Source of the DNA: Candidimonas sp.
Lineage (GTDB): Bacteria; Pseudomonadota; Gammaproteobacteria; Burkholderiales; Burkholderiaceae_B
NCBI GenBank assembly: GCA_004298545.1
Contig: SCQX01000172.1
Span: forward strand, 8,528 to 72,527
Direction of reading: 5' to 3'
Length of the DNA stretch: 64,000 nt
Part shown: in pieces, positions 9,420-59,984 of the stretch
How positions within the stretch are numbered: position 1 is the stretch's first letter
Layout of the letters: every line of letters begins with the position of its first letter
The notes under the pieces: model-generated
Databases searched by the model: none
What the model was told of the DNA's origin: nothing
The model's input: only the letters and a program-made list of their open reading frames with translations
Position numbers and translations under genes: made by a program

Positions 9420-9619
9420 CTCAAATCCTCCTCCGGGGTGAACATCACCGCGGGTTCCAACTCCTTCAGAGGCAGCCGGCGCAGATCATCTACACCTCGC
9501 ATCAGTGCCTCAATCGCATCAACATGCGCCTCCGCCAATGTTGAAGTGACGGGAATGCCTGCTAGTTGTTCGGACACCCGCTTCAATGTTTCAGCACTTA
9601 CCCTGGTACGCCGATGCAT
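9416..9619 (-). CDS. 67-aa GatC/AtzG-like small partner protein of the amidase (DUF4089-like)
   Basis: The track start at 9658 is a TTG. ATG 9619 sits 7 nt behind GGGAG. The stop overlaps the amidase ATG. C-terminal ...LKELEPAVMFTPEE resembles the ExPxxxF tail of GatC/AtzG-type peptides. The assignment rests on size, position and this motif only. Confidence 0.55.
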   Translation of the reverse strand: MHRRTRVSAETLKRVSEQLAGIPVTSTLAEAHVDAIEALMRGVDDLRRLPLKELEPAVMFTPEEDLR

Positions 9620-9654
9620 ATCGATTCTCCCATTCCAACTAGAAACTACCACTC

Positions 9655-10371: not shown

Positions 10372-11081
10372 GCGTTTCCCAGATAGATGCGCATTACATC
10401 TCGGTCTGCCTCTACGCTACTAATACTACCTTCCCGAAACACCTTCCCATAATGAAAGACAGTTACCTTATGTGCAATCTGGCGGACAAATTCCATATCA
10501 TGCTCGATCGCGATGATAGTGACACCTTCCGCATTCAGTTTCTGCACGAGTACCCCAGTCCGAAAGGTTTCCGCGGGCGACATGCCAGCTGTAGGTTCAT
10601 CGAGCAACAGGAGTTCAGGATGTGAGCCCATCGCCATACCGATATCGAGCCATTGCTGTTGTCCGTGTGACAGGTTTTGCGCTAGATCTTGCCTCTGCGA
10701 GTCAAGTCCAATGAGATCCATCAGGCGGTCCAACTCGGCTCGCAGATTCTCTGATGAAGTGGTACGCTGCAGTGCTACAAGAAGATTTTCTTCTGCACTG
10801 AGTGTAGGAAAAACGCCCGGAGCCTGGAACTTCACGCCTAAACCTTTCACAATACGACGATAGAATGGCAATGACGAAATGTCTTCATTCTTAAAATAGA
10901 TGGAACCTGCTGTAGGCTCGTAGAAACCAACGGCCAACCGCAGGAAAGTGCTTTTCCCTGCACCATTTGGGCCAATGATGCAGCGTACCTCCCCAGCATC
11001 AACGGAAAGGTCAACATTGGAAACCGCCTTAAAACCGCCGAATTGCTTGACGAGCCCATGCGTCTCGAGTAGCTTATCCAT
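10368..11081 (-). CDS. HAAT-family ABC transporter ATP-binding protein (LivG/UrtD-like)
   Basis: The track start at 11096 is a TTG; the first ATG is at 11081 (MDKLLETHGLVKQFGG). Walker A GPNGAGKST, signature LSHGQQQWLDIGMAM, Walker B LLLLDEPTAG. Confidence 0.9.
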   Translation of the reverse strand: MDKLLETHGLVKQFGGFKAVSNVDLSVDAGEVRCIIGPNGAGKSTFLRLAVGFYEPTAGSIYFKNEDISSLPFYRRIVKGLGVKFQAPGVFPTLSAEENLLVALQRTTSSENLRAELDRLMDLIGLDSQRQDLAQNLSHGQQQWLDIGMAMGSHPELLLLDEPTAGMSPAETFRTGVLVQKLNAEGVTIIAIEHDMEFVRQIAHKVTVFHYGKVFREGSISSVEADRDVMRIYLGNA

Positions 11082-11103
11082 ATCAGTTCTATCCAATGAT
11101 GTC

Positions 11104-12162
11104 TTAAATCTCCGGCTTCGATAATATTCGGTGTTTACGCCGAAACCACTTCCTATAACCGAGGGCGATCCCTACAATAAAGCCGTCTGGAACAAATAAA
11201 ATTACCATCAATAAAATTACGCCGAGAAGAATGAGCGCATACTGGCTTCCGTAAATCGCCAGTGCTTGAGAAACATATAGGATCACCAACGTTCCAATCA
11301 ATGCCGCAGTAAGGTCCTTGCGGCCGCCCACAGCAACCCAGATAACCGGAAGCACGGCGGAATACAACCCCATTGAACTCGGTGTAATATATTGGCCCCA
11401 CGCTACATACATGACGCCGCTGACTCCCGCAAGCGCACTACCAATCACAAAGGCACCCAGTTGATAGGCGCGGATGTCGAAACCCAACATCGTCGCGCGC
11501 AACGGGTTCTCACGAATAGCCACGAGCACTCGTCCAAAATGCGAATTCACGAGCATTCGAAGCCCAATATAAGTAATTACAATTGCACTGAGCAATAAGA
11601 AGAAAAGAATCCGCCCTTCAACAAGAACGTCACCATCGAACCAAGGAATACCTAGCGGCGGCATACCAGTCATACCGTTAAACCCATTGAGGCGCGCCGT
11701 ACCAATTGCCCATTCTGGCCCAGCTGTCTGTGCCAAGAACGTTTCCAGCACTAGGGTCACCGCTAGTGTGACAATCGCAACAAACACATCCGTAACCCCT
11801 CCATAAAACATAAAGTATCCGAGAAATGCCGCACAAAGACCGGACAGTGCAATGGCTGCGATTAGCGCTGCCCAAGTTACGCTACTCGCGTCGCCAAAAT
11901 TGAGAGTGATAATGCTATATGCGTAACCCGCCAGCCCGAAGAATGCTGTTTGACCGAAGCTAAGAATGCCTCCATATCCCCACATTAGACACAGGCCCAG
12001 CGCCATGAATACCCAGATCAGAAAATACGACGTGTTTTCGATTTGAAATGGATCTACAAACATACCGAACAGGATCGCCAGGCCAACAACAGCTCCTATC
12101 GAAGACCAAAAGCATCTACCGCGTCCAAGTGTGTGAATGCCCTCGACCAAGCTTAGATCCAT
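11104..12162 (-). CDS. HAAT-family ABC transporter permease (LivM/UrtC-like)
   Basis: The track start at 12177 is a TTG; an ATG is at 12162. Polytopic hydrophobic protein in the operon position expected for the second permease. Confidence 0.85.
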   Translation of the reverse strand: MDLSLVEGIHTLGRGRCFWSSIGAVVGLAILFGMFVDPFQIENTSYFLIWVFMALGLCLMWGYGGILSFGQTAFFGLAGYAYSIITLNFGDASSVTWAALIAAIALSGLCAAFLGYFMFYGGVTDVFVAIVTLAVTLVLETFLAQTAGPEWAIGTARLNGFNGMTGMPPLGIPWFDGDVLVEGRILFFLLLSAIVITYIGLRMLVNSHFGRVLVAIRENPLRATMLGFDIRAYQLGAFVIGSALAGVSGVMYVAWGQYITPSSMGLYSAVLPVIWVAVGGRKDLTAALIGTLVILYVSQALAIYGSQYALILLGVILLMVILFVPDGFIVGIALGYRKWFRRKHRILSKPEI

Positions 12163-12189
12163 GCTATTCCCCAGCAACGCAAGAAATAC

Positions 12190-13056
12190 TCACGCCTTTT
12201 TGCGAATGATCCAATCAGAGATACCTTTCGGCAACACGCGTATGGTGACGACAACCGCCAACAGGAGGCCAACCTGTCCAATGAGAGTACCGAACTGCGA
12301 CGTCAGGGCAGATTGAACAATACTCAAGACTCCACCCGCGGGCGCGGTGCCTACCAACACATCCCCGCCACCAACAATAACCGTAACGAACGCAGGAACA
12401 ACGAATCCACCGCCCATCGTCGGCACCAGTGTCATGGTGGGCGCATAAAGCGCCCCGGTGAGACCGGCCAAGCCGGCGCCAAACGCGAAAGTCAACCCAT
12501 ACATGACGTCAGTATTCAAGCCGAGTGCTCTTGCGATATCAGGGTCTTGTATAGTCGCACGCGCATATACGCCGTAGCGGGTATGGACAAAAACGTAATA
12601 GAGCGCTCCCAGCACGGCAATCGCGACAGCAACCAAAAACAACCGATAGACAGAAAAAGTAAATCCTCCAGCCGTCACACTCCCGAAAGGTGTTGGAATG
12701 CCAGCCAGGGTGGGGCCCGCCATGATAAGCATACCTTGACTGATAATAAGGCTAATACCCCAGGTAGCAATAATCGAATCAAGTGGTCGGCGATACAAGT
12801 GTCGAATGATGAGTCGTTCAAGAACAGATCCTATCAGTGCTACAGAAATGGTACCGACCACAATTGCTACTACGAGCGGTAACCCAAAGTGCGCCGTAAC
12901 TGCCGTTATGTACGCTCCAAGCATGATAAACTCGCCATGCGCAAGATTGATAACACCCATCATGCCAAAGATAATTGCTAATCCAACCGCACAAAGAACA
13001 AGAAAGGCAAAATTATCGGCGAACTGGTACAAGAAGACGATCGTTGACATCCCCAT
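12190..13056 (-). CDS. HAAT-family ABC transporter permease (LivH/UrtB-like)
   Basis: 288-aa polytopic membrane protein. ATG at 13056 or 13050 behind GGGAGG. Confidence 0.85.
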   Translation of the reverse strand: MGMSTIVFLYQFADNFAFLVLCAVGLAIIFGMMGVINLAHGEFIMLGAYITAVTAHFGLPLVVAIVVGTISVALIGSVLERLIIRHLYRRPLDSIIATWGISLIISQGMLIMAGPTLAGIPTPFGSVTAGGFTFSVYRLFLVAVAIAVLGALYYVFVHTRYGVYARATIQDPDIARALGLNTDVMYGLTFAFGAGLAGLTGALYAPTMTLVPTMGGGFVVPAFVTVIVGGGDVLVGTAPAGGVLSIVQSALTSQFGTLIGQVGLLLAVVVTIRVLPKGISDWIIRKKA

Positions 13057-13198
13057 CCTCCCGGAAGCAAATGGATAGTCGCATGACCCTCTGGCAGAAA
13101 TCGCTGGGCGCTCGTAAGCAAGTACCTATGGATACCGCACGTCGCAGCTGCCACCATCATGCTGAAGCTGCCTAAACATACAAGCCAGCTGATCCAGC

Positions 13199-14443
13199 CT
13201 ACTTACGTGGTGGATTACTAGGTGTATATTGATTGTGATCAGATTTCACTGGAAGGTTGCAGCCTGCATCTCCGAGCCAGCTCGGTTCCACGTCCGCCCA
13301 CACTTCCACACGCTTCAGAGAGTGATTAGGCTCCACCTGCATCATCGAAATGGTATGCGAAAGATGATGGCTTCTCGGGTCCACGCACACTTTGCCCTCC
13401 GGCGCTTCAATACAAGTATCCGGAGATTCAAGCGCCTTGATCACAGCCGCCTGATTCGTGGTACCCGCTTTTTTCACTCCATGCGCGTACAAATAAACCC
13501 CCACATAGGAATCCTCTCCCACCTGATTTATGTATTTCTCAGATGGAAATTTTGCATGCCACGCTTTCTTGAAAGCATCACTCGCAGGAGTGTCAATCTC
13601 TTCCATATAGTTAGCCGCTATATACATGCCATTCATCGCAGGAGGTGGCAACTGCTTATGCTCATAGAAGGTGGGGCCATTGACGAAGCTCGCCATTGGT
13701 ACTGTAAGGTTGGCAGCCGCCGCCTGTTGAAAAAAGGAAACCTGATTGGCGCCAATCATAAGAGTTATTAAAACATCCGGTTTTGCCGCCTGTATATTAC
13801 TGATCGTTTGGTTGAACTGAGATACACTCAGAGGTATAAACTCTTGCCCAACCATTTTCCCGCCACTCTGCTCAACAAACTTTCGTATCCATTCCGCTGA
13901 AATTTGTCCAAAATTATAATCTGCGGCAATCGTATATACCTTCGGCCCGAACTTTTTTACCATATATGGAACCATTTTTGACAATACCTGATCGGGTACG
14001 ATACCGGTCAAAAACATGTTCTTATCACAAACACCACCCTCATATTCATTATTATAGAAATACAACTGTTTGTACCGATCAGCGATGGGACGAATAGCTT
14101 CCCGGGAGGCACTAGAAAATGCGCCAAATAACACATCTACCTTATCTTGTAGAATCAGACGCCGTGCAAACTCTTGATAGCGGCGGTTATCGGATTGCGT
14201 ATCATAATATATGACCTTCAACTTTCGACCAAGCACTCCTCCGCGAGCATTAATTTCGGAAACCGCAAGCTCCACGCCGTGGACCTTTGGTATTCCGGCC
14301 GCTGCGAAATCTCCCGTGGAATCTTCCAATAGGCCAATCTTGATCGGACCACTAGCGGCATCCGCTGTCGCGCCGACTGCCACACCCGAAAGCGTGCAGA
14401 GTAATACCAGTGTCGATAGCTCTGCGACCCATGTTTTCTTCAT
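13199..14443 (-). CDS. periplasmic substrate-binding protein, amide/urea-binding (AmiC/UrtA-like) subgroup of the Leu/Ile/Val-binding fold
   Basis: Signal peptide MKKTWVAELSTLVLLCTLSGVAVGA. KIGLLEDSTGDFAAAG...ELAVSEINARGGVLGRKLKVIYYDTQSD...DKVDVLFGAFSSASREAI resembles UrtA/AmiC-type proteins. AGGAG lies 8 nt before the ATG. Confidence 0.85.
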   Translation of the reverse strand: MKKTWVAELSTLVLLCTLSGVAVGATADAASGPIKIGLLEDSTGDFAAAGIPKVHGVELAVSEINARGGVLGRKLKVIYYDTQSDNRRYQEFARRLILQDKVDVLFGAFSSASREAIRPIADRYKQLYFYNNEYEGGVCDKNMFLTGIVPDQVLSKMVPYMVKKFGPKVYTIAADYNFGQISAEWIRKFVEQSGGKMVGQEFIPLSVSQFNQTISNIQAAKPDVLITLMIGANQVSFFQQAAAANLTVPMASFVNGPTFYEHKQLPPPAMNGMYIAANYMEEIDTPASDAFKKAWHAKFPSEKYINQVGEDSYVGVYLYAHGVKKAGTTNQAAVIKALESPDTCIEAPEGKVCVDPRSHHLSHTISMMQVEPNHSLKRVEVWADVEPSWLGDAGCNLPVKSDHNQYTPSNPPRK

Positions 14444-14588
14444 AAGGTGTCTCCTAGAAGGTGCAATCGTCGAATCGGTGAATTAACCAAGCCATACTTT
14501 CCGCAGCGCTCGCGCCCGAACATTTCTACGCCATATGCGGATTTCAAACCCTCGACGCTTATAGCTAGTGGCCTAACACCGACAAATG

Positions 14589-14618
14589 ATGATAGTGCCA
14601 TAGTTGTCTATCAGACAA
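14589..14618 (-). promoter_or_regulatory. candidate sigma-70 promoter overlapped by perfect palindrome TTGTCT-ATC-AGACAA, upstream of the ABC/amidase operon
   Basis: Palindrome read at 14604-14618. On the minus strand TTGTCT-N18-TATCAT (-10 at 14589-14594) lies ~150 nt upstream of the binding-protein ATG. Confidence 0.35.
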
Positions 14619-14782
14619 GTCAGTAAAAACACCTATTGGGATATGGTGAAAAACTTGCACATGACTCCCGAGTGAACAGAGCACTCGCGGTGCATAAACT
14701 GACAACAGGCGGAAGGCGAACGCAACGGGCGTCAACACCGCAGGAAGTCAACACATTGCTGACAACAAAATACCCTACGGAC

Positions 14783-15418
14783 TTATTGTCTGGGAGCTCG
14801 CTCTTCCGTCACCACCTTCAGCCGCTGTAAATTAGCCGCCCGCGCCGTGTCGTATTCCATGAGATGGGCAATCTTGTCAGCCGCGGTTTCACCGTAACGA
14901 CGCGCGATCAGATAGAACGTCGTGTCGATCCCCAACGTTACGCCACCCCCCGTGATGACTCGGCCATTGTCGACGAGCAATACTTGACGCAGGACTCTTA
15001 CTTCCGCTTTCGCCAGTTCGTCCATCGGGGAGCATTCCGATGGAACAACGCGGCACTTGGTCGTGGCTGCAAGCCCATCGAGCACGCCAGCCGCCGCAAG
15101 AATCAGCGAACCGGTGCAGATTGACACCACCAGCGCTCTTGGCGCCCATTTGCGGATGAATGCAAGCGTCATCTCATCATGTGCCGCCCGAGACCAGCCT
15201 CCACCGCCCGGGACCATCAGCACGTCTACATCGGTTACTTCATCGAACGAGAGGCTGGGGAGCACCGCCAGCCCGTTGGACAGCCGCACCGCATCCCTTG
15301 TAGGGGCCACCAAGCGATATTCCAAGTCAGGAATCACTCGTTTGCCCATGGAGAACACGCCGATCGGCGCTAGATCGATTGGCTCGATTTCTGAGTAAAG
15401 CAAATAGGTTAGCTGCAT
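14783..15418 (-). CDS. DJ-1/PfpI-family (class I glutamine-amidotransferase-like) protein
   Basis: ORF track 14783..15472 trimmed to ATG 15418 behind GGAGGGAGG. Nucleophile-elbow Cys in VVSICTGSLILAAAGVLDG, and VLMVPGGGG. Confidence 0.8.
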   Translation of the reverse strand: MQLTYLLYSEIEPIDLAPIGVFSMGKRVIPDLEYRLVAPTRDAVRLSNGLAVLPSLSFDEVTDVDVLMVPGGGGWSRAAHDEMTLAFIRKWAPRALVVSICTGSLILAAAGVLDGLAATTKCRVVPSECSPMDELAKAEVRVLRQVLLVDNGRVITGGGVTLGIDTTFYLIARRYGETAADKIAHLMEYDTARAANLQRLKVVTEERAPRQ

Positions 15419-15487
15419 CTTTTCACGCCTCCCTCCAAGTGATGAACTGCCACCGCATCTTTTACCAGACATAGGTAAAAACCCGAT

Positions 15488-15502
15488 GTTGCCTTATAGG
15501 CA
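15488..15502. promoter_or_regulatory. 15-bp inverted repeat TTGCC-TTATA-GGCAA (candidate operator)
   Basis: Read directly, 70 nt upstream of the DJ-1/PfpI start in the region divergent from the MFS gene. It has the same arms and spacing as 5100-5114. Confidence 0.35.
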
Positions 15503-15726
15503 ATTCAATACTACGATTTGTCTCGACGGCGGTCAAGCTCAGAATCACACAAAACTGCACTCGCCGTGGACTACTGTGCTTGAACTAGTCTTCAGGAAAT
15601 CGGAAGCCCGGAATCAGAAGCTTCAAAGAAACACGTACAAAAGGCGAAAGCGCCCAAAGATCGACATGGGCCCGATCGTTCGTGAAATTGAGAAGTCAAC
15701 ATTCAGTCCATTGTCCGGAGACAAAA

Positions 15727-17067
15727 ATGATCACTTCCGCTGTAAATATTCCGCGTAATCGGGAATCAATACGCAAAGTAGCGTTTGCAAGCGCTATTGG
15801 TACGACCATCGAATGGTACGATTTCCTGATCTATGCCACCGCCGCGTCGCTCGTCCTCAATAAACTTTTCTTTCCGACCGATAACGCGCTCGTAAGCCAA
15901 TTGCTCTCTATCAGTACCATAGGGGTGGGGTTTTTCGCACGGCCTATCGGCGCTCTAATCCTCAGCCATTACGGGGACCGTATCGGACGTCGGTCGCTGC
16001 TAATTTTCACCCTCGTGGCTATGGGCATTTCTACAATGCTGATCGGACTGCTCCCCACATATGAATCCATTGGCATCGCTGCGCCCATCATCCTTGTAGT
16101 ATGCCGCTTGGTGCAGGGGCTCGCCGTTGGCGGGGAATGGGGAGGAGCCGTGCTGATGGCAATCGAGCACGCGCCGGAAGAAAAACGGGGCTTTTATGGC
16201 AGCGTAGTACAGATCGGCTTTCCATTAGGGATGGCACTCGGCACGATCTCATACTTTTCACTTGCGTTCCTCGACAATGCCCAGTTTTTAAGCTGGGGAT
16301 GGCGTCTGCCTTTCCTCGCAAGTGCCCTGCTGGTGGTCGTCGGTACCTACGTTCGCATACACATCGACGAAACACCAGACTTCGAGCAGAGTGTGCGAAG
16401 AGGGGAGATTGAACGCTTTCCGGTATGGCAGGCGATCCGTCGTTATCCGAAAGACATTCTTATTGGTCTGGGTGCACGCATTACCGAGATCTCGTGGATA
16501 TACGTACTGACCATCTTCGGCCTAAGCTATGCCGTGCAGGATTTGGGCTTGTCACGAAACTTGGTGCTCGGTGCCATTTCCATCGGCGCGATCGTGGAAC
16601 TCATCACGATTCCGCTCTGTGGCGCGATTTCCGACTACTTCGGCCGCCGGCCCGTATACATACTGGGATGCGTTGCCACCATCATCCTGTCATTTCCCAT
16701 CTTCTGGGGGATCGAAACAAAGGACCCGACCACTGTCATCCTCTCATTCGTCGTCGGTATGGCGGTGGGACATGGCATCATGTACGGGGTACAAGCGAGC
16801 TTCCTGAGTGAAATGTTTCCCACGAACGTACGTTACAGCGGCTCATCCTTGGGCTACCAAATCGCGGCCCCGTTGGGTGGAGGTATCGTGCCGGTCATTG
16901 CGGCGGCGTCTGTCGGCGCAACGCACGGTGAAACGTGGGCCGTCTCTCTGATGATGATAATCATCGCCCTGCTCACCATAATCGCGGTGTACTTAAGCAA
17001 AGAGACAGCTCCAAGAATCGTGCGCAAGGCACAGAAAGGAAAAGCCGCTACTCCGGTCGCGTCCTGA
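15727..17067 (+). CDS. MFS transporter, metabolite:H+ symporter (MHS) type
   Basis: ORF track 15682..17067 trimmed to ATG 15727 behind GGAG. TIEWYDFLIYATAASLVLNKLFFP and GDRIGRRS are typical of the ProP/KgtP/ShiA-type family. 12-TM-like hydrophobicity. Confidence 0.85.
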   Translation: MITSAVNIPRNRESIRKVAFASAIGTTIEWYDFLIYATAASLVLNKLFFPTDNALVSQLLSISTIGVGFFARPIGALILSHYGDRIGRRSLLIFTLVAMGISTMLIGLLPTYESIGIAAPIILVVCRLVQGLAVGGEWGGAVLMAIEHAPEEKRGFYGSVVQIGFPLGMALGTISYFSLAFLDNAQFLSWGWRLPFLASALLVVVGTYVRIHIDETPDFEQSVRRGEIERFPVWQAIRRYPKDILIGLGARITEISWIYVLTIFGLSYAVQDLGLSRNLVLGAISIGAIVELITIPLCGAISDYFGRRPVYILGCVATIILSFPIFWGIETKDPTTVILSFVVGMAVGHGIMYGVQASFLSEMFPTNVRYSGSSLGYQIAAPLGGGIVPVIAAASVGATHGETWAVSLMMIIIALLTIIAVYLSKETAPRIVRKAQKGKAATPVAS

Positions 17068-18472: not shown

Positions 18473-19291
18473 TTATGGCAGGAGCTTCAGCACTGTCGAC
18501 GGAACCTGATTGGCCTGCGCCAGCACGGCTGTGCCCGCCTGCTGCAAGATCTGTGCTCTAGTCATCGCCGAGACCTCCTGGGCGTAGTCCGCGTCCTGTA
18601 TTCGAGATTGCGCCGATGACAGGTTGACGACTGTGTTGGCAAGGTTATCCACCGTTGACGAGAAGCGGTTCTCCAATGCGCCTATGGTCGACCGGGCGGT
18701 ATCGACCGTCGCCAACGCGGTATCCACCGCATTGATCGTCGCCTGAGCCGAAGTACTGTCCGACACCGTCAAGGTGCTTACACCGAGGGTTGCGGCAGTT
18801 GCGTCGACAGTGGAAATGTCAATGGTGTCATTGCTCGTGGTGTTGGCGCCAACCTGGATCGTCAAGGTGGAGGCCGAGCTGAGCAGGCTGATGCCGTTGA
18901 ACGAGGAACTGCCGGAAATACGATTGATTTCAGCGACGCGCTGATTGATTTCAGTCTGGATCGAACTACGGTCAGCGGCGGTATTCGTGTCGGACGCGGC
19001 CTGCACGGCCAACTCGCGGATGCGCTGCAGGTTATCGGAAACTTCGTTCAACCCGCCTTCCTGCGTCTGCAACAGCGAAATGCCGTCATTCGCATTGCGC
19101 TGGGCCTGGTCCATGCCATTGATCTGCGTCGTCATGCGGTTGGCAATGGCCTCGCCGGCCGCGTCGTCGGCGGCGCTGTTGATGCGAAGGCCCGATGACA
19201 GCCGCTGGATGGCGGTCGCCAGATCCGCATTGGATTTGTTCAGGTTGTTCTGAGCCTGAAGGGCCAGAATATTGGTGTTGATGACGGACAT
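18473..19291 (-). CDS. fliC: flagellin (short, 272 aa)
   Basis: ORF track trimmed to ATG 19291 behind AGGAG. N-terminal MSVINTNILALQAQNNLNKSNADLATAIQRLSSGLRINSAADDAAG and C-terminal LSSAQSRIQDADYAQEVSAMTRAQILQQAGTAVLAQANQVPSTVLKLL. Confidence 0.95.
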   Translation of the reverse strand: MSVINTNILALQAQNNLNKSNADLATAIQRLSSGLRINSAADDAAGEAIANRMTTQINGMDQAQRNANDGISLLQTQEGGLNEVSDNLQRIRELAVQAASDTNTAADRSSIQTEINQRVAEINRISGSSSFNGISLLSSASTLTIQVGANTTSNDTIDISTVDATAATLGVSTLTVSDSTSAQATINAVDTALATVDTARSTIGALENRFSSTVDNLANTVVNLSSAQSRIQDADYAQEVSAMTRAQILQQAGTAVLAQANQVPSTVLKLLP

Positions 19292-22395: not shown

Positions 22396-22791
22396 ATGCC
22401 ATCGACGACGACGGAAGGCGGTTCCCGGGATGGGGCGAGCACGGATCTGATCAATCAGTACCGCAACGTGCTCGCCTGCGTGCAGACAATGCGCGCCCGC
22501 GCACTCGAGCAAGACTGGGGAGCGGTGATGCGAGCGGGCATACGCTACGAGCAAAGTGTGATGGTCTTGCGCAACCATCCGGGGTACGATCAACTTGGCG
22601 AGGCGGAGAACCTGGAGCGACGAGCGCTTCTGGGCGATATTCTTTCATGCGACCGGGCGGTGCGCGATCTGGTCCTGCCCGCGCAGGCAAGGGTCGGACA
22701 GTTGATCAGCGGCCTCGCGCGGCAAAAAAAATTGCTGCGCAGCTACGGCGCGAATGGATCGGTTACGCTCGGCCGCGCACCCGGCACCTGA
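22396..22791 (+). CDS. fliT: FliT-like flagellar chaperone
   Basis: 131-aa helical protein immediately after fliS. The assignment is by position and size with weak sequence resemblance. Confidence 0.6.
   Translation: MPSTTTEGGSRDGASTDLINQYRNVLACVQTMRARALEQDWGAVMRAGIRYEQSVMVLRNHPGYDQLGEAENLERRALLGDILSCDRAVRDLVLPAQARVGQLISGLARQKKLLRSYGANGSVTLGRAPGT
22724..22731. repeat. A8 homopolymer inside the fliT 3' end
   Basis: CAA AAA AAA TTG read directly. It is the longest A/T run I noticed in the GC-rich part of the window. Confidence 0.9.
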
Positions 22792-22810
22792 CCACCAAGA
22801 GGTGGGAGAC

Positions 22811-24220
22811 GTGAAAAACACTGGCATCGATGTCCTGCTCACGCAGCGCGTGGAAACGGCGCTTGGCGTCTTACTCGGCCAAGCGCGCGACATGCGCGTG
22901 CGTTCAACGGCGCGCGATGTTTCAGAACCCGGTGACGTCCCCCGCACCGACGAAACCCACTCCGCCTCGGGCCGCGCGGGCGACACCGAGCGCGCCCTCG
23001 CGGATGTGAGGGCCGGCGGCCCCGCCCAGACTCAGGCACGCAGCGCGGGTTCCACGCTCGTCGCCCGCTCGGGCCGCGACCCGGCCGGACCCGCGGGGCG
23101 CGAATTTATCCCCGCGGGCGCGGTGGACGCCGACGCGGAGCTGTCGGTACAGGTGCATTTGACCCCGGACGGTGCGGCTCTCGCGCGCGCCAGCGCGGCG
23201 ACCGCAAGCATCGGTCGCGCAGCCGCGCAACCGCCCGCGGAAATCCGCACGGACACCCCGGCGAGCGCTCCCGCGGCGCTACTGGCCGATGAAGCCGGGC
23301 GCGCGCGACAGGCCGTCGCCCCGCTGCTGGACGGGCGCAATCCGGCACTGGCGACACTGGCGCGCTCGCAAGACATTCCACAGCCCGTGCGCGACGTCCT
23401 GATCCTCTTGGTGGATGCGATGTTGAGCAGCGGCCTGTTTCAAACGAGCCTTCTTGCCGACGCTCATGCCGGCAGACTCGCTTATGAAAAGCTATCGTCG
23501 TACTTGTCCGCCGCCACCGCCGCGAATCGCCAGGACGGACGGACGGATTCCGCTGCGAACCGCCCGATACCCGGCGCCGGCGTACAAGATCTCCAGCCCG
23601 GAACTGGATCCGCTAGTAGCGCCGACACCGCGCTGCCCGCCGCCGGAAACGCGAGCGGGCGGCCCGCGAGCGGAACATCGACAAGCGTACAAACGGTATC
23701 GCAAGTCGCCGCTCAGACGGGCGCGGAAACAGGCACGCAGGCGCCGCAGGTCCTTCCGGGCGGAACCCCGGGAGCGGCGCTGGAGGCGCTCTACAGCCAG
23801 TCCATGACCTTTCAGATACCGCTCTTCCCGGGAGCGCCCCCGGCAACGTTGGTGTTCGCACGCCAGGAAAAACCGAAAGATGGCGCAAGCAACGACGGCG
23901 CGAACCATGCGGCGCCACGCAATCAGGCGCCACGCGGCGCCTCCGGCTGGCACTGCACGCTTGAGATCGATCTGCCGCGCCTTGGCCCCATACAGGCCGC
24001 GTTTTCAGCCGATCACAACGACGTGTCGGTCGACATCCGCGCCGCGCGCGAGCCCACGATGCTCACTCTGCAAGTCGCACTGGCCCACGGCGCCCTGAAG
24101 TCGGATAGAGCCGTTCGGGTGACTAGCGTCTCGCGCTGGGAATGGGCGCCGCGGCCGGTTCCGATGGGGGACGGCGAAAGCGGCGCGACCAACGCGGGCT
24201 CCGCGCCACGGGAAACGTGA
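22811..24220 (+). CDS. FliK-like protein (Ala/Pro/Gly-rich, C-terminal Flg_hook-like segment)
   Basis: The track ORF 22754..24220 overlaps fliT. GTG 22811 behind GGTGGGAG is the likelier start. The C-terminal LEIDLPRLGPIQAAFSADHNDVSVDIRAAREPTMLTLQVAL parallels the FliK hook-length-control domain. Confidence 0.7.
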   Translation: MKNTGIDVLLTQRVETALGVLLGQARDMRVRSTARDVSEPGDVPRTDETHSASGRAGDTERALADVRAGGPAQTQARSAGSTLVARSGRDPAGPAGREFIPAGAVDADAELSVQVHLTPDGAALARASAATASIGRAAAQPPAEIRTDTPASAPAALLADEAGRARQAVAPLLDGRNPALATLARSQDIPQPVRDVLILLVDAMLSSGLFQTSLLADAHAGRLAYEKLSSYLSAATAANRQDGRTDSAANRPIPGAGVQDLQPGTGSASSADTALPAAGNASGRPASGTSTSVQTVSQVAAQTGAETGTQAPQVLPGGTPGAALEALYSQSMTFQIPLFPGAPPATLVFARQEKPKDGASNDGANHAAPRNQAPRGASGWHCTLEIDLPRLGPIQAAFSADHNDVSVDIRAAREPTMLTLQVALAHGALKSDRAVRVTSVSRWEWAPRPVPMGDGESGATNAGSAPRET

Positions 24221-30580: not shown

Positions 30581-32164
30581 ATGGCAAGCGTCAAGGCGAT
30601 CATCCTGCAGCAAAGCGGTGGAACGGTGAATGCGACCGCCTCCCCCACACGCACCGCCGGCCCTTCGAACAACGGAACATTCACCCAAGCGCTCTCGCAG
30701 GCGACTCACGGCCATGACGAGGGTGACGCGCCCGGCGGTGGCGGCGCTCCAGGTAGTGGCGGCGCTCCGGGTAATGGCGACGTCCGGGGCAGCGGCACCA
30801 ACGCGGCCCGGGTCGCCAGCGGCACCGACACCACTCGGGGCACCATCGGGGCGCCGGGCGCATCCGGCACCGCCGCGGCCAACCTCGGGAACGGCGCGAT
30901 CGAGGATCCACCAAGCTCAACGGCGGCCGTCCGCGCGGGTATTGCCGTGGACGGGAGCATAGCCGCGAATGGGGGCGCGGCCGCAGGCGGGATCGTGGCA
31001 GCGGATAGAGGCGCGGCCGTGGATGGGGACGCGACGGCGGGGAAGTCCAAGGACAGGACGCGGGGCGGCGAGGGAAAAGACGCCGCTGGAACGGGATCGT
31101 CCCCATTACCGGAAACCATGGTGGGTCCGCTCGCTGGCCTGGTGCAAGCCACGGTAATCGCGCGCGCGCCCACGGGCGGCCAGTCACCGGCGCAACCCGC
31201 CGGCATGCAACTTCCCGCGGCAAGCGGTGGCGCATCACTGTCTGACAGCGCTGGGGGAATCTCGCAAACCGGGGCAATCACACTGGCCGCTACTCCAGCC
31301 GCCGCATTCATGGCAACGGCCACGGCGGCGCCCCCGACGACACCGAAAGCAGCTGGGGATTCGCCCGCATCCCGAGCCCTCACGTCCGCCGCGGAAACGC
31401 TCGATGCCGGAGCCCTCACTGCCGAGCGCGGCCCGACGGGATCGCTTGCCGGCGCGCAAGTCCTCTATGTGCGCGGCCAATCGCAGCCGGACTCGCAACA
31501 GCCCGGCGGGCAAGCCCAACCCACCGGCGCGCAGGTACTGACGCAACACTTCCTCGACGAGCTGAATCGCGCCCGTGGGCTTCTCGATGCGGACAAAGAC
31601 GCGTCGCCGGGATCGGCACAATCGCCGACCGCCACCGCACAAGCCCCCCTGCGGTTTGCCGCCGCCACCATCCAGTCTCCGGTGGGCTCCGCAAGTTTCG
31701 GCCAGGATCTCGTCCACGACATCGCACGACTCGTCACCGCCAACCTGCCGTCGGGCACGAGCACCGTGCAAATGAATCTGAACCCCCCGAACCTCGGCCC
31801 ACTGCAGGTCACGGTGAGCGTCGCGGCCGGCGTTGCCCAAGTCTCTTTCGCCAGCGGACACGAAGCGGTGCGCGAGGCGGTATCGGCGAACCTTGCGGCG
31901 CTGCAGCAGGCACTCGCCCAACAGGGAATCTCTCTGGGCCAGACACAGGTGGGGAGTCAGGGCGGCCAGGCGGCCTATTCACCTCAATCGCAGGCTTTTT
32001 TCGAACGGAGATCGGGCAGCGGATCGGGCGGCAGCCGCGACGCGAATGGGCACGGACCGACCGGGATCGGCGGCGCGCGCGCCGCCGCGCTTCCCCCCGC
32101 GCACGAGGTAATCGCCGGCACCCACGCCCCCGACCCTTCGCGGCTGGTCGACACGAAGGCGTGA
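30581..32164 (+). CDS. fliK: flagellar hook-length control protein
   Basis: 527-aa Ala/Gly/Pro-rich protein. C-terminal NLNPPNLGPLQVTVSVAAGVAQVSFASGHEAVREAVSANLAALQQALAQQGISLG (Flg_hook domain). Sits between fliJ and fliL. Confidence 0.85.
   Translation: MASVKAIILQQSGGTVNATASPTRTAGPSNNGTFTQALSQATHGHDEGDAPGGGGAPGSGGAPGNGDVRGSGTNAARVASGTDTTRGTIGAPGASGTAAANLGNGAIEDPPSSTAAVRAGIAVDGSIAANGGAAAGGIVAADRGAAVDGDATAGKSKDRTRGGEGKDAAGTGSSPLPETMVGPLAGLVQATVIARAPTGGQSPAQPAGMQLPAASGGASLSDSAGGISQTGAITLAATPAAAFMATATAAPPTTPKAAGDSPASRALTSAAETLDAGALTAERGPTGSLAGAQVLYVRGQSQPDSQQPGGQAQPTGAQVLTQHFLDELNRARGLLDADKDASPGSAQSPTATAQAPLRFAAATIQSPVGSASFGQDLVHDIARLVTANLPSGTSTVQMNLNPPNLGPLQVTVSVAAGVAQVSFASGHEAVREAVSANLAALQQALAQQGISLGQTQVGSQGGQAAYSPQSQAFFERRSGSGSGGSRDANGHGPTGIGGARAAALPPAHEVIAGTHAPDPSRLVDTKA
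30740..30775. repeat. 18-bp tandem duplication in fliK
   Basis: GGCGGCGCTCCAGGTAGT / GGCGGCGCTCCGGGTAAT, encoding GGAPGS-GGAPGN. Confidence 0.8.
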
Positions 32165-55264: not shown

Positions 55265-55440
55265 GGCGCGCCCTTTTCGCGAACAAGCGAACGGAATATG
55301 GATACGACCGTATGATGCCGGAAAGCGCGGCCACAAAAAGGCGAGTTGTAGCGGGAGAAAACCCTTTAGTTCGCCGGTTTCCCGCGCATGCGGATGCACG
55401 ATACTGAAGCGGTCCTCCGCAACGAAAGGCAACATTGCCC

Positions 55441-58032
55441 ATGTCAGCCGCCAACGCCCACGCCGCCTCGGGATTCGACAGCGAGCAATCGATTGAAAAT
55501 GCGCGCCTGCGCGGGCTTGCGGCCGGCCAGGGGGGGCGCCCCCAGCAGGGGCACCTGGCCGAGGAAAAGCGCGCGCGCGCCGAGCTGCGGGCGGGGCGAT
55601 ACGAAGCGGCCCGCGTGCGCTTCCGCGATATTCTCAAGCGCTCGCCGCATCACCTGTCATCGCTCATCAACCTGGGGTCGGTATACGTACACCTCCATCG
55701 CAACGGCGAGGCGATCGAGGCGCTTTACCACGCAATCGCCCTGAACGGGAAAGCCCACCCGGCATGGATCAATCTCACCCAGGCATTGCTCGGTGAACAT
55801 GCTTGGCAACAGGCCTACGACACCGTCCAGCAAGCGATCACGCTCTTCGGCGTGAGTGCGCAGCTGCGCTCCATCCGCGGCGATGCGCTCAAGGGGCTCG
55901 GCAAGTTCGAGCGGGCACTGGAAGACCTCGACTTCGCGGTACGTGAAGAACCTGACAACCCCGTGCATCGCATCAGGCGAGGCGGATGCCTCGTGAACCT
56001 GAATCGTTATCGCGAGGCCATGGCGGATTTCGAACGGCTGACCGAGTCGGAGCGCCAGCAGACGTGCGTCAACATGGGGCTCGCGTACTTGCGTACCGGC
56101 GACGCACACCGCTCGCTGCCCTACTTCGACCGGGCGATCGAGCTCAAGCAAGAAGTGGAAATCGCATGGTCCAACAAATCCACGGCCTTTATCCATCTCG
56201 GGGAATGGGCAAAGGCCTATGAGGCGCTGAGCAAGGCGATCGAGATCGATCCGAAGCGGGCCGACTTTTTCTTCAACATGAGCCTGCTTCTGTTGCGTGT
56301 CGGGGAGTACGACCAGGGGCTGGAAATGTACGAGTGGCGCCTGCGCCGCCCCCCTCAGAGCAACATGGCGCGCATCACGTCCGCGCCGCGCTGGGACGGA
56401 AAGGCAAGCCTCTCTGGCAAGACACTCTTCGTACGGCTGGAACAAGGCGCGGGCGACATGATTCAGATGGTCCGCTATCTGCCGGCGCTCATGGATCATG
56501 GCGCGACAGTGGCCCTCGAATCACACGTGGCGCTCAAGCCCCTGCTTGTCAGCCTGGACGCGCGACTCGTGCTTGTGGACCCAGGCAAACGCCCCGCAAA
56601 CTTCGATGTCTGGATCGAACTCATGAGCCTGCCGTACCTCGCCGGCACACGGCCCGACGACATACCGCTCGCCGACAAACCCTATCTTTCGGCGAACGTG
56701 GCCCTTGCCGCCGACTGGCGGGCGCGCCTGGCCCAGACGGCCCCCACCGGTGCGCGCCACCTCGGCTTCGTTTGGCAGGGCAACCAGGACCACGCCAACG
56801 ACGAGAACCGTTCGCTCGACAACGTGCGCCGCCTGGCCCCATTGCTTTCGATCCCCGGCACGCACTGGCATTGCCTGCAGATCAAGGTCGGCGAGCAAGA
56901 CCGCGCATGGCTGGCCGCCCAACCCAACGTCACGCTCTGGGGTGAAGCCCTCGCCGACTATGGGCAGACGGCGGCCATCATCCAGAACCTGGAAGCGCTC
57001 ATCACCGTCGACACATCGGTCGCGCACGTGGCTGGCGCCATAGGCAAACCCACATGGGTACTGCTTGCCAAGGGGCCCGACTGGCGCTGGGGCGTAACAT
57101 TCGACTCCGGCCCCTGGTACGCGTGCACCCGGCTCTTCCGCCAGCCGGCATACCGCGACTGGGAGACCGTCATCGATGACGTGCGCAAGGCACTCATGGC
57201 ACAGGGAACGGCCATGAACACCCGCGATGGCGCGGCGGAATCCCCGCCGCCGCCCGCGGCCGTCAGCCCACCCCACCCGTGCAAGGTCTGTGGCGGCGCG
57301 ACCAGCCTGTACGGAGTCGTGGACTTCAACAAAAGCTGTGAAGAGCGCAATGGCCTGTACTTGCCGTTGACCGGCGTACCGATCTACTACCGCCAATGCC
57401 GCGACTGCCGACTCATTTTCACCGAGGCATTCGACGAATGGAATCCGCGGGATTTCAAGGCCAACATCTACAACGAGGATTATGCGGCCGTCGACCCCGA
57501 TTACCGTGACAAGCGCCCGCGCGGTTGTGCGCAAACCGTGGCCGCCCTGGCGCGCCGGCTGCATGCGCAGCACCTCTTCGACTACGGAGCCGGTGCGGGA
57601 CTGATGGCGCGGCTGCTGCGCGAACAAGGGTTTTCGTGCGAAGCATGGGATCCATTCGATGCGGCAGCGAACACGCCACGCGATCCGCCGCGCGCAGGCG
57701 CATCGGCCGCCGGGCGCGCGCACCCCGAAAGCGGACGGTACGACCTCGTAAGCGCCTTCGAAGTGCTCGAACACACGCCGACTCCTGAAAAGACCGTCGC
57801 CGAGCTGCTCGGGTTCGCAAGCCCCGAAGGCATCGTCGTCTTCTCCACGCTGGCCGTCGACGCGCTACCGCCGCGCAGCGTCTGGTTCTGGTACATCGCC
57901 CCTCGCAATGGCCATGTGACCATCTACACGAAGACCGCGCTCGAAAGGCTTTTCTCGGCTTTCGGCTGGAAGCTGCACCACTTCTCGGAAGACTTGCACG
58001 TAGCCTACCGCGGCACCCTGAACCTGGGGTGA
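55441..58032 (+). CDS. fusion protein: TPR repeats / GT9-like glycosyltransferase-fold domain / Zn ribbon + class I SAM methyltransferase (candidate flagellin-modifying enzyme)
   Basis: The track start at 55435 is a TTG; ATG is at 55441. TPR-like helices ~55570-56335. LFVRLEQGAGDMIQM...ALITVDTSVAHVAGAIGKPTWVLL (heptosyltransferase-like GT-B C-terminal motif) ~56400-57200. CKVCGG...CRDC Zn ribbon ~57280-57410. SAM motif I LFDYGAGAG and VSAFEVLEH ~57535-58015. Confidence 0.8.
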   Translation: MSAANAHAASGFDSEQSIENARLRGLAAGQGGRPQQGHLAEEKRARAELRAGRYEAARVRFRDILKRSPHHLSSLINLGSVYVHLHRNGEAIEALYHAIALNGKAHPAWINLTQALLGEHAWQQAYDTVQQAITLFGVSAQLRSIRGDALKGLGKFERALEDLDFAVREEPDNPVHRIRRGGCLVNLNRYREAMADFERLTESERQQTCVNMGLAYLRTGDAHRSLPYFDRAIELKQEVEIAWSNKSTAFIHLGEWAKAYEALSKAIEIDPKRADFFFNMSLLLLRVGEYDQGLEMYEWRLRRPPQSNMARITSAPRWDGKASLSGKTLFVRLEQGAGDMIQMVRYLPALMDHGATVALESHVALKPLLVSLDARLVLVDPGKRPANFDVWIELMSLPYLAGTRPDDIPLADKPYLSANVALAADWRARLAQTAPTGARHLGFVWQGNQDHANDENRSLDNVRRLAPLLSIPGTHWHCLQIKVGEQDRAWLAAQPNVTLWGEALADYGQTAAIIQNLEALITVDTSVAHVAGAIGKPTWVLLAKGPDWRWGVTFDSGPWYACTRLFRQPAYRDWETVIDDVRKALMAQGTAMNTRDGAAESPPPPAAVSPPHPCKVCGGATSLYGVVDFNKSCEERNGLYLPLTGVPIYYRQCRDCRLIFTEAFDEWNPRDFKANIYNEDYAAVDPDYRDKRPRGCAQTVAALARRLHAQHLFDYGAGAGLMARLLREQGFSCEAWDPFDAAANTPRDPPRAGASAAGRAHPESGRYDLVSAFEVLEHTPTPEKTVAELLGFASPEGIVVFSTLAVDALPPRSVWFWYIAPRNGHVTIYTKTALERLFSAFGWKLHHFSEDLHVAYRGTLNLG

Positions 58033-58041
58033 TGCGGCCCG

Positions 58042-59118
58042 CTATGCGCGCGCGCCGGCTTCGGCCAACAGGCGGCCGGCCATCTGGCCAAGCGGTACCG
58101 CTTCGGCCGCCGCGCCGATGAGCAGCGCCTCGCGCGGCATGCCGAAAACCACACAGCTCGCCTGATCCTGGGCAAGCGTGATGGCGCCCGCCGCGCGCAT
58201 CGCCAGCATACCGCGGGCGCCATCCCTGCCCATTCCGGTAAGGATGATCCCCACAACGTCGCCGCCGGCCACTTTCGCGCCCGAATAAAAAAGTGCGTCG
58301 ACCGAAGGGCGGTGACGATTGACGGGCTCGGAATAATCCAGATGCGTCACATACTGCGCGCCAACCCTCGCAAGCTGCAGGTGCGCAATGCCGCCCGGGG
58401 CAAGATACACATGGCCGCGCAGCACCGGCTCGCCATCGGTGGCCTCGCTCACGCTCACCGCGCACAGGGTATCCAGGCGCTTGACGAACGAAGCAGTGAA
58501 GCCCGCCGGCATGTGCTGCGTAATGAGGATGGCGGGGCTGTCCTCTGGCAAAGGTTCCAGCACTTGGCGGATGGCTTCGGTGCCGCCGGTGGAAGCGCCG
58601 ATCAGCACGATTTTCGTTGTGGTGGGCGCATGCCACACAAGCCGTTTGCCAGCCATGTCCTGCGTACGGCGCGTGCGGCTCTGGCGCGCGCGCGCGCGCG
58701 CCGCCACACGAATCTTTCCAGCGAGCATCTCGCCGAACCCGGCGAGCCCATCACGGACATCGCCGCCGGGCTTGGCGACAAAATCCACCGCGCCCAACTC
58801 GAGCGCCCGCAGCGTCACCTGCGAACCGCGCTCGGTCAGGGACGAAACCATGACCACCGGCATGGGGTGCAGGCGCATGAGCCGATCAAGAAAATCCAAC
58901 CCGTCCATGCGCGGCATTTCCACGTCGAGCGTGAGCACGTCGGGCTCGAGGCGCTTCACGAGCTCCCGTGCGACGAGTGGGTCCGGCGCCGAGCCCACCA
59001 TTTCCATGTCTGGCTGTCGACCGACGAGCTCCGTGAGGATCCTGCGCATGAGCGCGGAATCATCCACGCACAGGACTCTGATCTTCTGTTCGGTCCCGCC
59101 CTTTTTCACCTCATCCAT
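58042..59118 (-). CDS. cheB: chemotaxis methylesterase / response regulator
   Basis: 358 aa. [19 protein letters not shown]...[10 protein letters not shown]. Esterase GASTGGTEA and ...GMGRDGA. Confidence 0.95.
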
Positions 59119-59984
59119 CAGCCATCTCGCACGTAGACCGTCTGGCCAAGCAACTTCAAGCCCGGCACGATCTGGGAAAAATTCTCCGAGTGCCCCACAA
59201 AGATCAACCCTTGCGGCTTGAGCCTGGCGAACAACGCCTGCAACACGCGACGCTGGGTCGCGTGGTCGAAGTAGATGAGAACGTTGCGGCAGAAGATCGC
59301 GTCGAACTCACGCGCGGCCAACGGCCAGCCGGCGGGATCGGCGCACAGGTTCGCGGCGCCGAACTCCACGAGACTGGCAAGCTCGGGTTTGACCCTCACA
59401 CGCCCGGCCTGGGCACCGCGTCCGCGATGGAAGTATTTCTTCAAACGAGCGTCACCCACCGGTTCGACTCGCGCGAGTGTGTAAACGCCCGCGCGCGCCG
59501 CGTCGATCGCGCGGGAATCCACGTCCGTCGCGAGGATGACGCCCGGCACCGCCGCCGCGGGTACCGTTTCGCGCAGCGTCATTGCGATCGAGTAAGGCTC
59601 TTCGCCAGTGGAGGCTGCGCAGCACCAGATACTGATTGGTGATCGGCGCCCCCGCAGAAACGCCTCCAGCTTGCGAAAATGGTGCGCCTCCCGGAAAAAT
59701 GCCGTGTGGTTGATCGTGAACGCCGCGGTGAATTCGTCCCACTCGGGGCTTTGCGTCTGCGTGGCCAATGCCGAAAGATAGCTGCCCGTGTCGCCCCGCG
59801 CGGTCGCGCGGGCGCGCTGCGTGATCACGCGCACAACCGCATCGCGTCTATGATCGGGCAGGACGATACCCGCGTGTGCCTTCAGCAGCGCCTTTGCCCG
59901 GGCAATGTCATCTTCGGAAATGTCCGCCCGCTCATAGGCATTTGCCGCCACATCAAAAATTTCTGACACCTGCGTGCTACCCAA
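59118..59984 (-). CDS. cheR: chemotaxis methyltransferase
   Basis: TTG start at 59984 (no in-frame ATG nearby; the length matches enteric CheR). [10 protein letters not shown] and [17 protein letters not shown]. The stop overlaps the cheB ATG by 1 nt. Confidence 0.9.

Follow-up and report, generated by a model that had tools for sequence, protein, structure and literature searches.

What does the large multidomain protein encoded between cheB and motA on Candidimonas sp. contig SCQX01000172.1 act on? The window, by which we mean the whole 64-kb stretch of DNA analyzed here, carries a flagellar regulon that is nearly complete (fliC, fliA, fliDST, fliE-R, flgA-N, flhBA, motAB and cheABRW) and, within it, one gene whose product joins tetratricopeptide repeats (TPR), a glycosyltransferase (GT) and an S-adenosylmethionine (SAM)-dependent methyltransferase:

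55441..58032, plus strand: whole gene, an 863-amino-acid (aa) TPR / GT9-like GT-B / zinc-ribbon SAM-methyltransferase fusion (GenBank TAM87461.1)

The longest frame of this open reading frame (ORF) spans 55435-58032 on the plus strand from a TTG codon, and the ATG at 55441 yields the 863-aa product, which is identical end to end to TAM87461.1, recorded as "MAG: tetratricopeptide repeat protein [Candidimonas sp.]" (MAG, metagenome-assembled genome). GenBank labels the window protein "tetratricopeptide repeat protein" and its ortholog in a second genome (P0002) "methyltransferase domain-containing protein", and nothing more.

We give about an even chance to the reading that this is an FlmG-like, cytoplasmic, bifunctional enzyme that glycosylates flagellin and carries an attached glycan-methylating module. 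FlmG proteins are 596-aa cytoplasmic enzymes in which binding to flagellin falls to a TPR domain (aa 1-313) and donor specificity to a GT-B domain (aa 309-596) (PMC7591256; bioRxiv 10.1101/2022.03.25.485807). Flagellin glycosylation is therefore proposed from three features together: the FlmG-like plan and domain boundaries, the location in a flagellar regulon, and a short, Ser/Thr-rich flagellin encoded in the same window:

18473..19291, minus strand: fliC, 272-aa flagellin, the proposed acceptor (central 80 aa 39% Ser+Thr; 2 Lys in the whole protein)

The basis of the reading is an observed one: the architecture, intact catalytic motifs, a cytoplasmic location, flagellar placement in two genomes and a recurrent coupling of GT and methyltransferase. 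A first-pass annotation of this DNA had already pointed to the short flagellin with its Ser/Thr-rich center and to a TPR-plus-glycosyltransferase layout as in FlmG, and both points agree with what we found (TPR 1-313 and GT-B 309-596 in FlmG; PMC7591256). The same annotation's division of the protein into TPR, GT-B, Pro-rich linker, CxxC...CxxC and class I SAM methyltransferase was borne out by Pfam and by AlphaFold2 (AF2) models. Its first two modules are as follows:

55480..56376, plus strand: TPR-like helical repeat domain, aa 14-312, presumed acceptor-protein binding module (Pfam TPR models; AF2 predicted local distance difference test, pLDDT, >94; function inferred from FlmG, PMC7591256)
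56377..57210, plus strand: compact GT-B domain, aa 313-590, remotely GT9-like (AF2 fold; Pfam GT9 18-20 bits; WaaC/WaaF matches at E ~0.04)
56440..56457, plus strand: N-lobe motif EQGAGD, aa 334-339, near-invariant in the family; D339 is a candidate catalytic base
57007..57051, plus strand: C-lobe motif VDTSVAHVAGAIGKP, aa 523-537, GT9 donor-binding signature (Pfam and profile matches)

Many Pfam TPR models match between about aa 40 and 300 (best E 1e-24), and the AF2 model of aa 1-600, built from 76 homologs (pLDDT 94.3), shows helical repeats at aa 14-312 followed by a pair of beta/alpha lobes with a long helix at the C-terminal end, the form of a compact GT-B enzyme. The prediction of a heptosyltransferase-like GT was sound as to GT9 motifs and compact GT-B fold but not as to the Pfam family threshold: the motif LITVDTSVAHVAGAIGKP matches Pfam Glyco_transf_9 at 18-20 bits, under the gathering threshold of 22. 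All 29 members of the GT-domain alignment (A4) match Pfam GT9, weakly, and three relatives (P0036, P0383 and the protein of locus L026) pass the cut-off at 23-29 bits. When the A4 profile was searched against the PDB, the lipopolysaccharide (LPS) heptosyltransferases WaaC and WaaF were the sole matches (E ~0.04), at VDTxxxHLAxAxGxP; with the GT segment as a single query sequence, the PDB gave no matches. The window motif VDTSVAHVAGAIGKP aligns with WaaC 'VDTGLSHLTAALDRP', so that both the GT9 C-lobe motif and the N-lobe G-D motif are present; EQGxGD and the C-lobe motif are near-invariant in the family and intact in the window protein, and D339 may be the equivalent of the GT9 Asp. Judged by its sequence, the protein keeps GT9 motifs without being a bona fide GT9 enzyme by the Pfam threshold. 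In a fold search with the aa 1-600 model, the TPR-plus-GT-B enzymes SPINDLY and OGT rank first, with repeat-driven TM-scores of 0.27-0.43; Glyco_transf_41 (PF13844) gave no Pfam match in the window protein, which places it outside GT41. No hydrophobic segment is present (maximum KD19 = 1.37), and the protein is therefore taken to be cytoplasmic.

These results bear on whether the acceptor is a protein at all. The GT9-like domain could have LPS core, some polysaccharide or a small molecule as its acceptor, with the TPR domain as scaffold only, and this finds some support in WaaC and WaaF being the sole sequence-level relatives with solved structures and in the size of a GT family that is huge and uncharacterised. 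That similarity is restricted to one motif at E ~0.04, however; the window protein is without a membrane-association segment, OGT, SPY and FlmG, all of them protein glycosyltransferases, are built as TPR plus GT-B (PMC7591256), and the relatives cluster with exported proteins. We consider a non-protein acceptor very unlikely.

Beyond the GT-B domain, a linker leads into the third module:

57211..57273, plus strand: Pro-rich, poorly conserved linker, aa 591-611 (low pLDDT; sequence comparison)
57274..57426, plus strand: four-Cys zinc ribbon, aa 612-662 (C614, C617, C653, C656), the most conserved segment, with 82% identity to the ortholog
57427..58029, plus strand: class I SAM-dependent methyltransferase, aa 663-863 (Methyltransf_23; AF2 pLDDT 90.5; fold matches)
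57658..57711, plus strand: 18-aa low-complexity Ala/Pro/Arg-rich insertion, aa 740-757, absent from the ortholog and from stand-alone homologs; pLDDT dips here (loop)

The part beyond the linker (METHYLTRANSFERASE) has four Cys, C614/C617...C653/C656, that are invariant among homologs, and then the class I methyltransferase with motif I, DYGAGAG, at aa 714-720 (57580-57600), whose residues D714, G716 and G718 do not vary across the family; the module also has the YIAPRNGH motif of the family. Methyltransf_23 covers aa 688-847 at 90.8 bits (E = 1e-25, cut-off 27), which assigns the module to that family. Of the profile matches anticipated for the three segments, TPR and Methyltransf_23 were thus recovered, whereas Glyco_transf_9 stayed below threshold and Methyltransf_13 gave no match.

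A resemblance to NDP-sugar methyltransferases (NDP, nucleoside diphosphate) had been suggested for this module, and it is true of the fold: the best 18 PDB fold matches of aa 596-863 in Foldseek, from an AF2 model with pLDDT 90.5, are to KijD1, TcaB9 and MtmC (E 6e-10 to 5e-8), with TM-scores of 0.50-0.59 relative to the query and 0.34-0.41 relative to the target. It does not extend to the C-terminal third domain of these enzymes, which is absent. The module has the four-Cys zinc domain and SAM-binding Rossmann domain of the TcaB9/KijD1 type, without the Methyltransf_14 domain and without sequence similarity to that type (phmmer E ~0.4; no Pfam matches to PF08421/PF08484, Methyltransf_13/14); the nearest solved enzyme by sequence is UbiG. 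A CheR-like or FliB-like methyltransferase was also considered and rejected for want of any Pfam or NCBIfam family match, and no Maf (MAF_flag10), FliB or CheR domain is among the Pfam/NCBIfam matches of the window protein; a bona fide CheR is encoded nearby at 59118-59984. The window protein is accordingly not TcaB9-type, because the third domain is absent, nor is it a GT41, Maf, FliB or CheR protein. Stand-alone homologs of about 250 aa are numerous (1,035 matches, with 45-54% identity among those listed) and occur in Paraburkholderia, Caballeronia, Ewingella and others. In the underlying search with the C-terminal 258 aa, P0001 and P0002, the entries holding the query's own sequence or that of its ortholog, were not in the best 120, which shows that a word-index search can miss long multidomain proteins.

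Where the methyl group goes is the next question, and it is probably to the glycan. Three unrelated types of methyltransferase have been recruited to this GT family, the same methyltransferase ends a multi-GT polypeptide (P0036), and the module's best fold matches are sugar C3-methyltransferases; each of these favors a methyl group on the sugar. Alternatively, the methyltransferase may modify the acceptor protein itself, at a side chain or terminus, leaving two independent marks. Flagellin methylation is known elsewhere, for example from Salmonella FliB, and two features of the module would suit such a role: its stand-alone homologs lie outside glycan contexts, and it is without the TcaB9 sugar-nucleotide-binding domain. 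We nevertheless hold protein methylation to be quite unlikely, given that no FliB-type or other protein-lysine methyltransferase family is matched and that the GT family repeatedly recruits differing methyltransferases, among them FkbM/RfbT-like sugar methyltransferases. The first-pass annotation had left the choice between sugar and protein undecided; the sugar is the favored methyl acceptor because the flagellin has 2 Lys, neither in its exposed segment, and on its sequence flagellin lysine methylation by the fusion protein is unlikely.

The genomic setting is what ties the protein to flagella. Between 49.9 kb and the end of the window, all other genes are read from the minus strand, in the order flhA, flhB, motB and motA on one side of the fusion gene and cheB, cheR, MCP (methyl-accepting chemotaxis protein), cheW and cheA on the other. 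Positions given earlier for the 863-aa ORF, opposite in strand to these neighbors with a 176-bp spacer to motA and a 9-bp gap to cheB, agree with our coordinates: motA starts with GTG at 55264 (its 291-aa product is TAM87478.1), and the convergent cheB stop codon (58042) lies 9 bp past the stop of the fusion gene. The GC3 of the fusion gene, 0.79, is similar to that of adjoining genes. Upstream lies the following:

55265..55440, no strand assigned: divergent spacer between the fusion gene and motA, 176 bp, with no sigma-70 or sigma-28 consensus and no conservation relative to the region upstream of the ortholog

The upstream regions of the fusion gene and of P0002 gave no alignment. A sigma-28-like element, CAAG-N14-CCGATAT, lies upstream of fliC and is absent upstream of the fusion gene. 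As a separate observation, the interval from cheB to flhB in the window (58042-55264) lacks both cheY and cheZ and is occupied by the fusion gene and motAB.

A close-relative search covering 5.8 billion sequences returned P0002 (890 aa, 50% identity, from another Candidimonas MAG) as the only full-length close relative. Its locus (L001) reads flhC ... MCP, cheW-REC (REC, receiver), cheR, cheB, P0002, motA, motB, flhB, flhA on one strand, with flanking gaps of 137 and 74 nt that are compatible with co-transcription. The slot between cheB and motA is therefore common to both Candidimonas genomes; the orientation of the gene in it differs. Neighboring flagellar proteins share 46-91% identity between the two genomes, and the fusion itself shares 47% in the TPR, 53% in the GT, 82% in the zinc ribbon and 50% in the methyltransferase domain. 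The P0002 locus also encodes a CheW-receiver (CheV-like) fusion and has no cheA in the stretch covered.

The position within the regulon raises the possibility of a different flagellar or chemotaxis target, such as the hook FlgE, the cap FliD, the junction proteins FlgK/L, the stator or a receptor. The fusion gene adjoins motA and cheB, with fliC 36 kb off, and further axial proteins are likewise exported unfolded. Nothing, however, favors a specific alternative among these; the most obvious Ser/Thr-rich exposed segment is that of flagellin, and the characterised TPR-type flagellar glycosyltransferases all act on flagellin (PMC7591256; PMC4462625). We see a slim chance that the target is a flagellar component other than flagellin.

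Relatives of the protein broaden the range of candidate acceptors. An exhaustive HMMER search with aa 300-863 found the GT plus zinc-ribbon methyltransferase fusion in at least 8 clusters at 50% identity, including P0288, P0311, P0355, P0379, P0380 and P0383, which are colinear with the window protein over GT and methyltransferase at 39-47% identity, and the 1,509-aa P0036, in which TPR, a GT9-like domain and this methyltransferase are preceded by GT41 and GT4 domains. Literature searches turned up no account of a TPR-GT-methyltransferase fusion, as the first pass had supposed, but the fusion is not unique to this genome. The GT-domain family numbers 37,970 representatives (50% identity clusters) at E <= 1e-3, and no experimentally characterised member of the TPR-GT9-like family was found in the literature. 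Giant proteins of 2,000-3,140 aa with 4-6 tandem GT9-like copies also occur (P0241-P0262), other giants having from 3 copies.

We compared 36 window flagellar and chemotaxis proteins by tblastn with 44 loci that hold relatives. Flagellar genes were found in the P0002 locus, near one Ralstonia TPR-GT paralog (3.6 kb beyond fliE-fliK) and, in the form of fliD, 25 kb from a Caballeronia TPR-GT; none of the Burkholderia, Caballeronia and Ralstonia relatives examined is beside fliC/fliD. The expectation that orthologs would be linked to flagellar loci was thus realized in P0002, in its slot between cheB and motA, but not in distant relatives, most of which are unlinked. P0379 and P0380 have cytochrome, two-component or housekeeping genes as neighbors, and the Caulobacteraceae relative P0029 is beside TonB receptors with no flagellar linkage. 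The closest TPR-GT without a methyltransferase is P0004 (52% identity in the GT domain); it lies (L002/L003 10001-11761) right after Dot/Icm-type type IVB secretion genes (DotI, DotH, TrbI-like), with many unannotated genes around it. A scan of species-representative genomes returned 6 distant loci at 31-34% identity, with neither Candidimonas genome among them, and a metagenome scan returned 9 loci, 0 of them flagellar.

The informative contexts among these relatives point to exported filamentous proteins. The gene that comes directly after the fusion P0383 has a two-partner secretion (TPS) domain. On Paraburkholderia and Caballeronia replicons, methyltransferase-TPR-GT9-like proteins (L026 11164-12912 and L027 11080-12849) are set in TPS loci with a ShlB/FhaC-type transporter, a 'peptide transporter' and a hemagglutinin-repeat protein, their genes standing between those of the FhaC-type transporter and the hemagglutinin-repeat protein, which suggests, by analogy with HMW1C, that they may glycosylate adhesins; their methyltransferase is N-terminal, of the Methyltransf_11/23 kind, and different from the window module. 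A 30-kb island on plasmid p1 of Azospirillum sp. TSH100 (L040) has a giant Ig-like protein, GT2, GT4, four GT9-like copies and an FkbM methyltransferase; up to 11 copies of the GT9-like domain are found on Azospirillum plasmids, and the fusion P0288 is followed by an FkbM/RfbT-like methyltransferase gene. Three kinds of methyltransferase accordingly recur with the GT family: C-terminal zinc-ribbon Methyltransf_23, N-terminal Methyltransf_11/23 and neighboring FkbM. Since most relatives are not linked to flagellar genes and several are beside TPS exoproteins or giant adhesin-like proteins, the architecture alone does not imply flagellin.

This leads to the main rival explanation, in which the protein is a glycosyl- and methyltransferase of the same family but modifies an exported protein that is not flagellar and whose gene lies elsewhere, such as an adhesin secreted by a TPS or type I system, the flagellar location being a lineage-specific accident. 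The relatives' contexts, including those with giant Ig-like proteins, are in keeping with it, as are the inverted orientation of the window gene and its lack of a flagellar-type promoter. Retention of the slot between cheB and motA across two genomes, with just 46-91% identity between their flagellar proteins, argues the other way, as do the ortholog's position on the che/mot strand with gaps that fit co-transcription, the absence of any adhesin-like gene from the window, and a GC3 that matches the neighbors. On balance, we regard a non-flagellar exported acceptor as unlikely, though it is the alternative that most needs to be kept in mind.

Returning to flagellin glycosylation as the favored reading, the following scheme is envisaged. 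The N-terminal TPR superhelix would capture a filament protein that is unfolded or not yet exported, the 272-aa flagellin being the most likely one. The GT9-like GT-B domain would take a sugar from a nucleotide-sugar whose synthesis is encoded elsewhere in the genome and transfer it to Ser/Thr residues of flagellin's exposed central segment, probably by an inverting mechanism in which D339 and the DTSVAH motif would provide catalytic and donor-binding residues. The tethered zinc-ribbon SAM methyltransferase would methylate the sugar, either on the donor or after transfer, and not the protein. What we infer here is which protein is the acceptor, which sugar is donated, where the methyl group goes and in what order the reactions run, and the function suggested for the fusion rests on synteny in two genomes and on analogy. 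As previously remarked, no nucleotide-sugar biosynthesis genes are among the window ORFs scanned with Pfam, and the scan showed none for a CMP-nonulosonic acid donor, whether pseudaminic acid (Pse) or legionaminic acid (Leg). The genes of the FlmG sugar pathway are scattered, those for Pse in Caulobacter showing no linkage to flmG (PMC7591256, Table 1), so the absence of local sugar genes is no objection to the favored reading.

Other observations do weigh against it, and they come from the setting, the relatives and the domains alike. The fusion gene is on the opposite strand to its che/mot neighbors and is beside these rather than the filament genes, fliC being 36 kb away, and neither a sigma-28 (flagellar) nor a sigma-70 promoter was found in the 176-bp spacer. 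Flagellar linkage of the fusion is seen in 2 genomes, both Candidimonas MAGs, and P0379, P0380, P0004 and about 20 other relatives have no flagellar genes within about 10-20 kb. Members of the family occur in MAGs of Chlorobiaceae, and green sulfur bacteria are non-flagellate. Within the protein, the Glyco_transf_9 (PF01075) match at aa 508-539 scores 18.1 bits with the whole protein and 19.8 bits with the domain alone, short of the GT9 threshold, and the methyltransferase module ends about 130 aa early, without the C-terminal sugar-nucleotide-binding domain of the TcaB9 type. The stand-alone methyltransferase contexts that were read (n=3) are unrelated to flagella or glycans.

A more ambitious proposal goes beyond the favored reading, and we offer it as a long shot. 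The fusion may be a self-contained module, independent of any dedicated sugar pathway, in which the GT9-like domain would O-glycosylate flagellin from a housekeeping LPS-core donor such as ADP-heptose, in the manner of the GT9-like autotransporter heptosyltransferases, and the tethered methyltransferase would add a methyl group to the attached sugar in cis; and the TPR-GT9-like family, with its roughly 38,000 members, may be a general and so far overlooked class of cytoplasmic enzymes that glycosylate exported filamentous proteins (flagellins, TPS exoproteins and giant adhesins), with substrate range set by TPR swapping and glycans often methyl-capped.

Two mechanisms of variation were considered and set aside. 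The first concerns a homopolymeric tract near the 5' end of the gene:

55530..55536, plus strand: G7 tract, at chance level and with no part in any mechanism

The tract is present as the first pass reported, but no significance attaches to it: the window has 7 G7/C7 runs against 9.95 expected from shuffled sequence, and the N-terminal segment in which the tract falls is not conserved in the ortholog. Phase variation at this site was rejected on these grounds. The second, programmed inversion of the fusion gene, was prompted by the opposite relative orientation of the ortholog. No convincing flanking inverted pair was found; inverted matches in and around the gene are weak and GC-rich (15-23 nt, 74-87% complementary), and the 3' gap is only 9 bp.

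Elsewhere in the window, a low-GC island at 8000-16000 (GC 0.49-0.52 against 0.61-0.68 around it) sits immediately upstream of the flagellar regulon and is probably a horizontal acquisition. It was examined as a hidden sugar cluster and rejected, as it contains genes for an amidase, a five-gene Liv-type ABC transporter and a DJ-1/PfpI protein instead. Two FliK (Flg_hook)-like ORFs are present, one after fliT at 22754-24220 (weak, E = 9e-5) and the other at the canonical place after fliJ at 30581-32164. The heptamer CCGATAC occurs at 13 sites (for example 47745, 18157 and 15980) against 5.6 expected, a count reached in 1 of 100 shuffles.

Among known systems, the GT9 heptosyltransferases WaaC and WaaF resemble the window protein in the C-lobe pattern D-T/S-x-x-x-H-L/V-A-x-A-x-G-x-P, the N-lobe G-D and the compact GT-B fold; the window protein differs in having a TPR domain at its N terminus, and similarity is limited to about 32 residues, below the Pfam GT9 cut-off. 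TibC and AAH are GT9-like autotransporter heptosyltransferases that O-glycosylate exported proteins in the cytoplasm with a housekeeping donor; the GT profile found no TibC-type match in the PDB. OGT, SPINDLY and HMW1C, which combine TPR with GT41, likewise place a TPR acceptor-binding domain ahead of a GT-B catalytic domain, whereas the window protein has a much smaller catalytic domain that is GT9-like. The cytoplasmic glycosylation of a TPS exoprotein by HMW1C (PMC3012730) is a parallel to the TPS-linked relatives of the window protein.

The NDP-hexose C3-methyltransferases TcaB9, KijD1 and MtmC share with the window module a SAM-binding domain preceded by a four-Cys zinc domain at the N terminus; the window module is without their C-terminal domain of about 130 aa, and its stand-alone homologs are outside sugar-biosynthesis clusters. 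In Pseudomonas aeruginosa, PA1091 (FgtA) is a GT2 fused to a phosphotransferase, and a separate methyltransferase, PA1088, acts on a threonine moiety (PMC11833859). Together with CD0240-CD0244 of Clostridioides difficile, PA1091/PA1088 provides precedent for a flagellin GT that has a further glycan-tailoring activity in one polypeptide and for methyl groups on a flagellin glycan that depend on a methyltransferase (PMC11833859), although the PA1091/PA1088 domains have no relation to the domains of the window protein. FlmQ (BCAL0111) of Burkholderia cenocepacia, like the window protein from a betaproteobacterial host, is a predicted flagellin glycosyltransferase whose deletion gives non-glycosylated flagellin and reduced motility (PMC4462625); a methyltransferase fusion is not reported for FlmQ. 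The first-pass annotation had ascribed a TPR-plus-glycosyltransferase architecture to FlmQ as well.

The closest parallel in layout is FlmG itself, as known from Caulobacter crescentus (CCNA_01524) and Brevundimonas subvibrioides: a TPR domain followed by GT-B, with matching boundaries. The FlmG hallmark of TPR and GT-B in one cytoplasmic polypeptide is found in the window protein, with an extra C-terminal methyltransferase, and genetic linkage with flagellar genes is found in both the window and the P0002 locus. Both systems have short flagellins (about 273 aa for FlmG), and the sugar-pathway genes are unlinked in FlmG hosts (PMC7591256), as they would be here; the window protein differs in its additional 250-aa zinc-ribbon methyltransferase and its betaproteobacterial host, and no Pse/Leg genes appeared among the window ORFs scanned. 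By this analogy, the protein may be said to follow an FlmG-like plan, with membership in the FlmG family unproven. Should the favored reading be correct, the FlmG-type class, described as confined to Caulobacterales (bioRxiv 10.1101/2023.12.03.569772), would be widened to a betaproteobacterium. It would also gain a one-polypeptide system for the coupling of acceptor capture, sugar transfer and glycan tailoring, and a first functional handle would become available on the TPR-GT9-like (~38,000) and zinc-ribbon Methyltransf_23 (>1,000) families.

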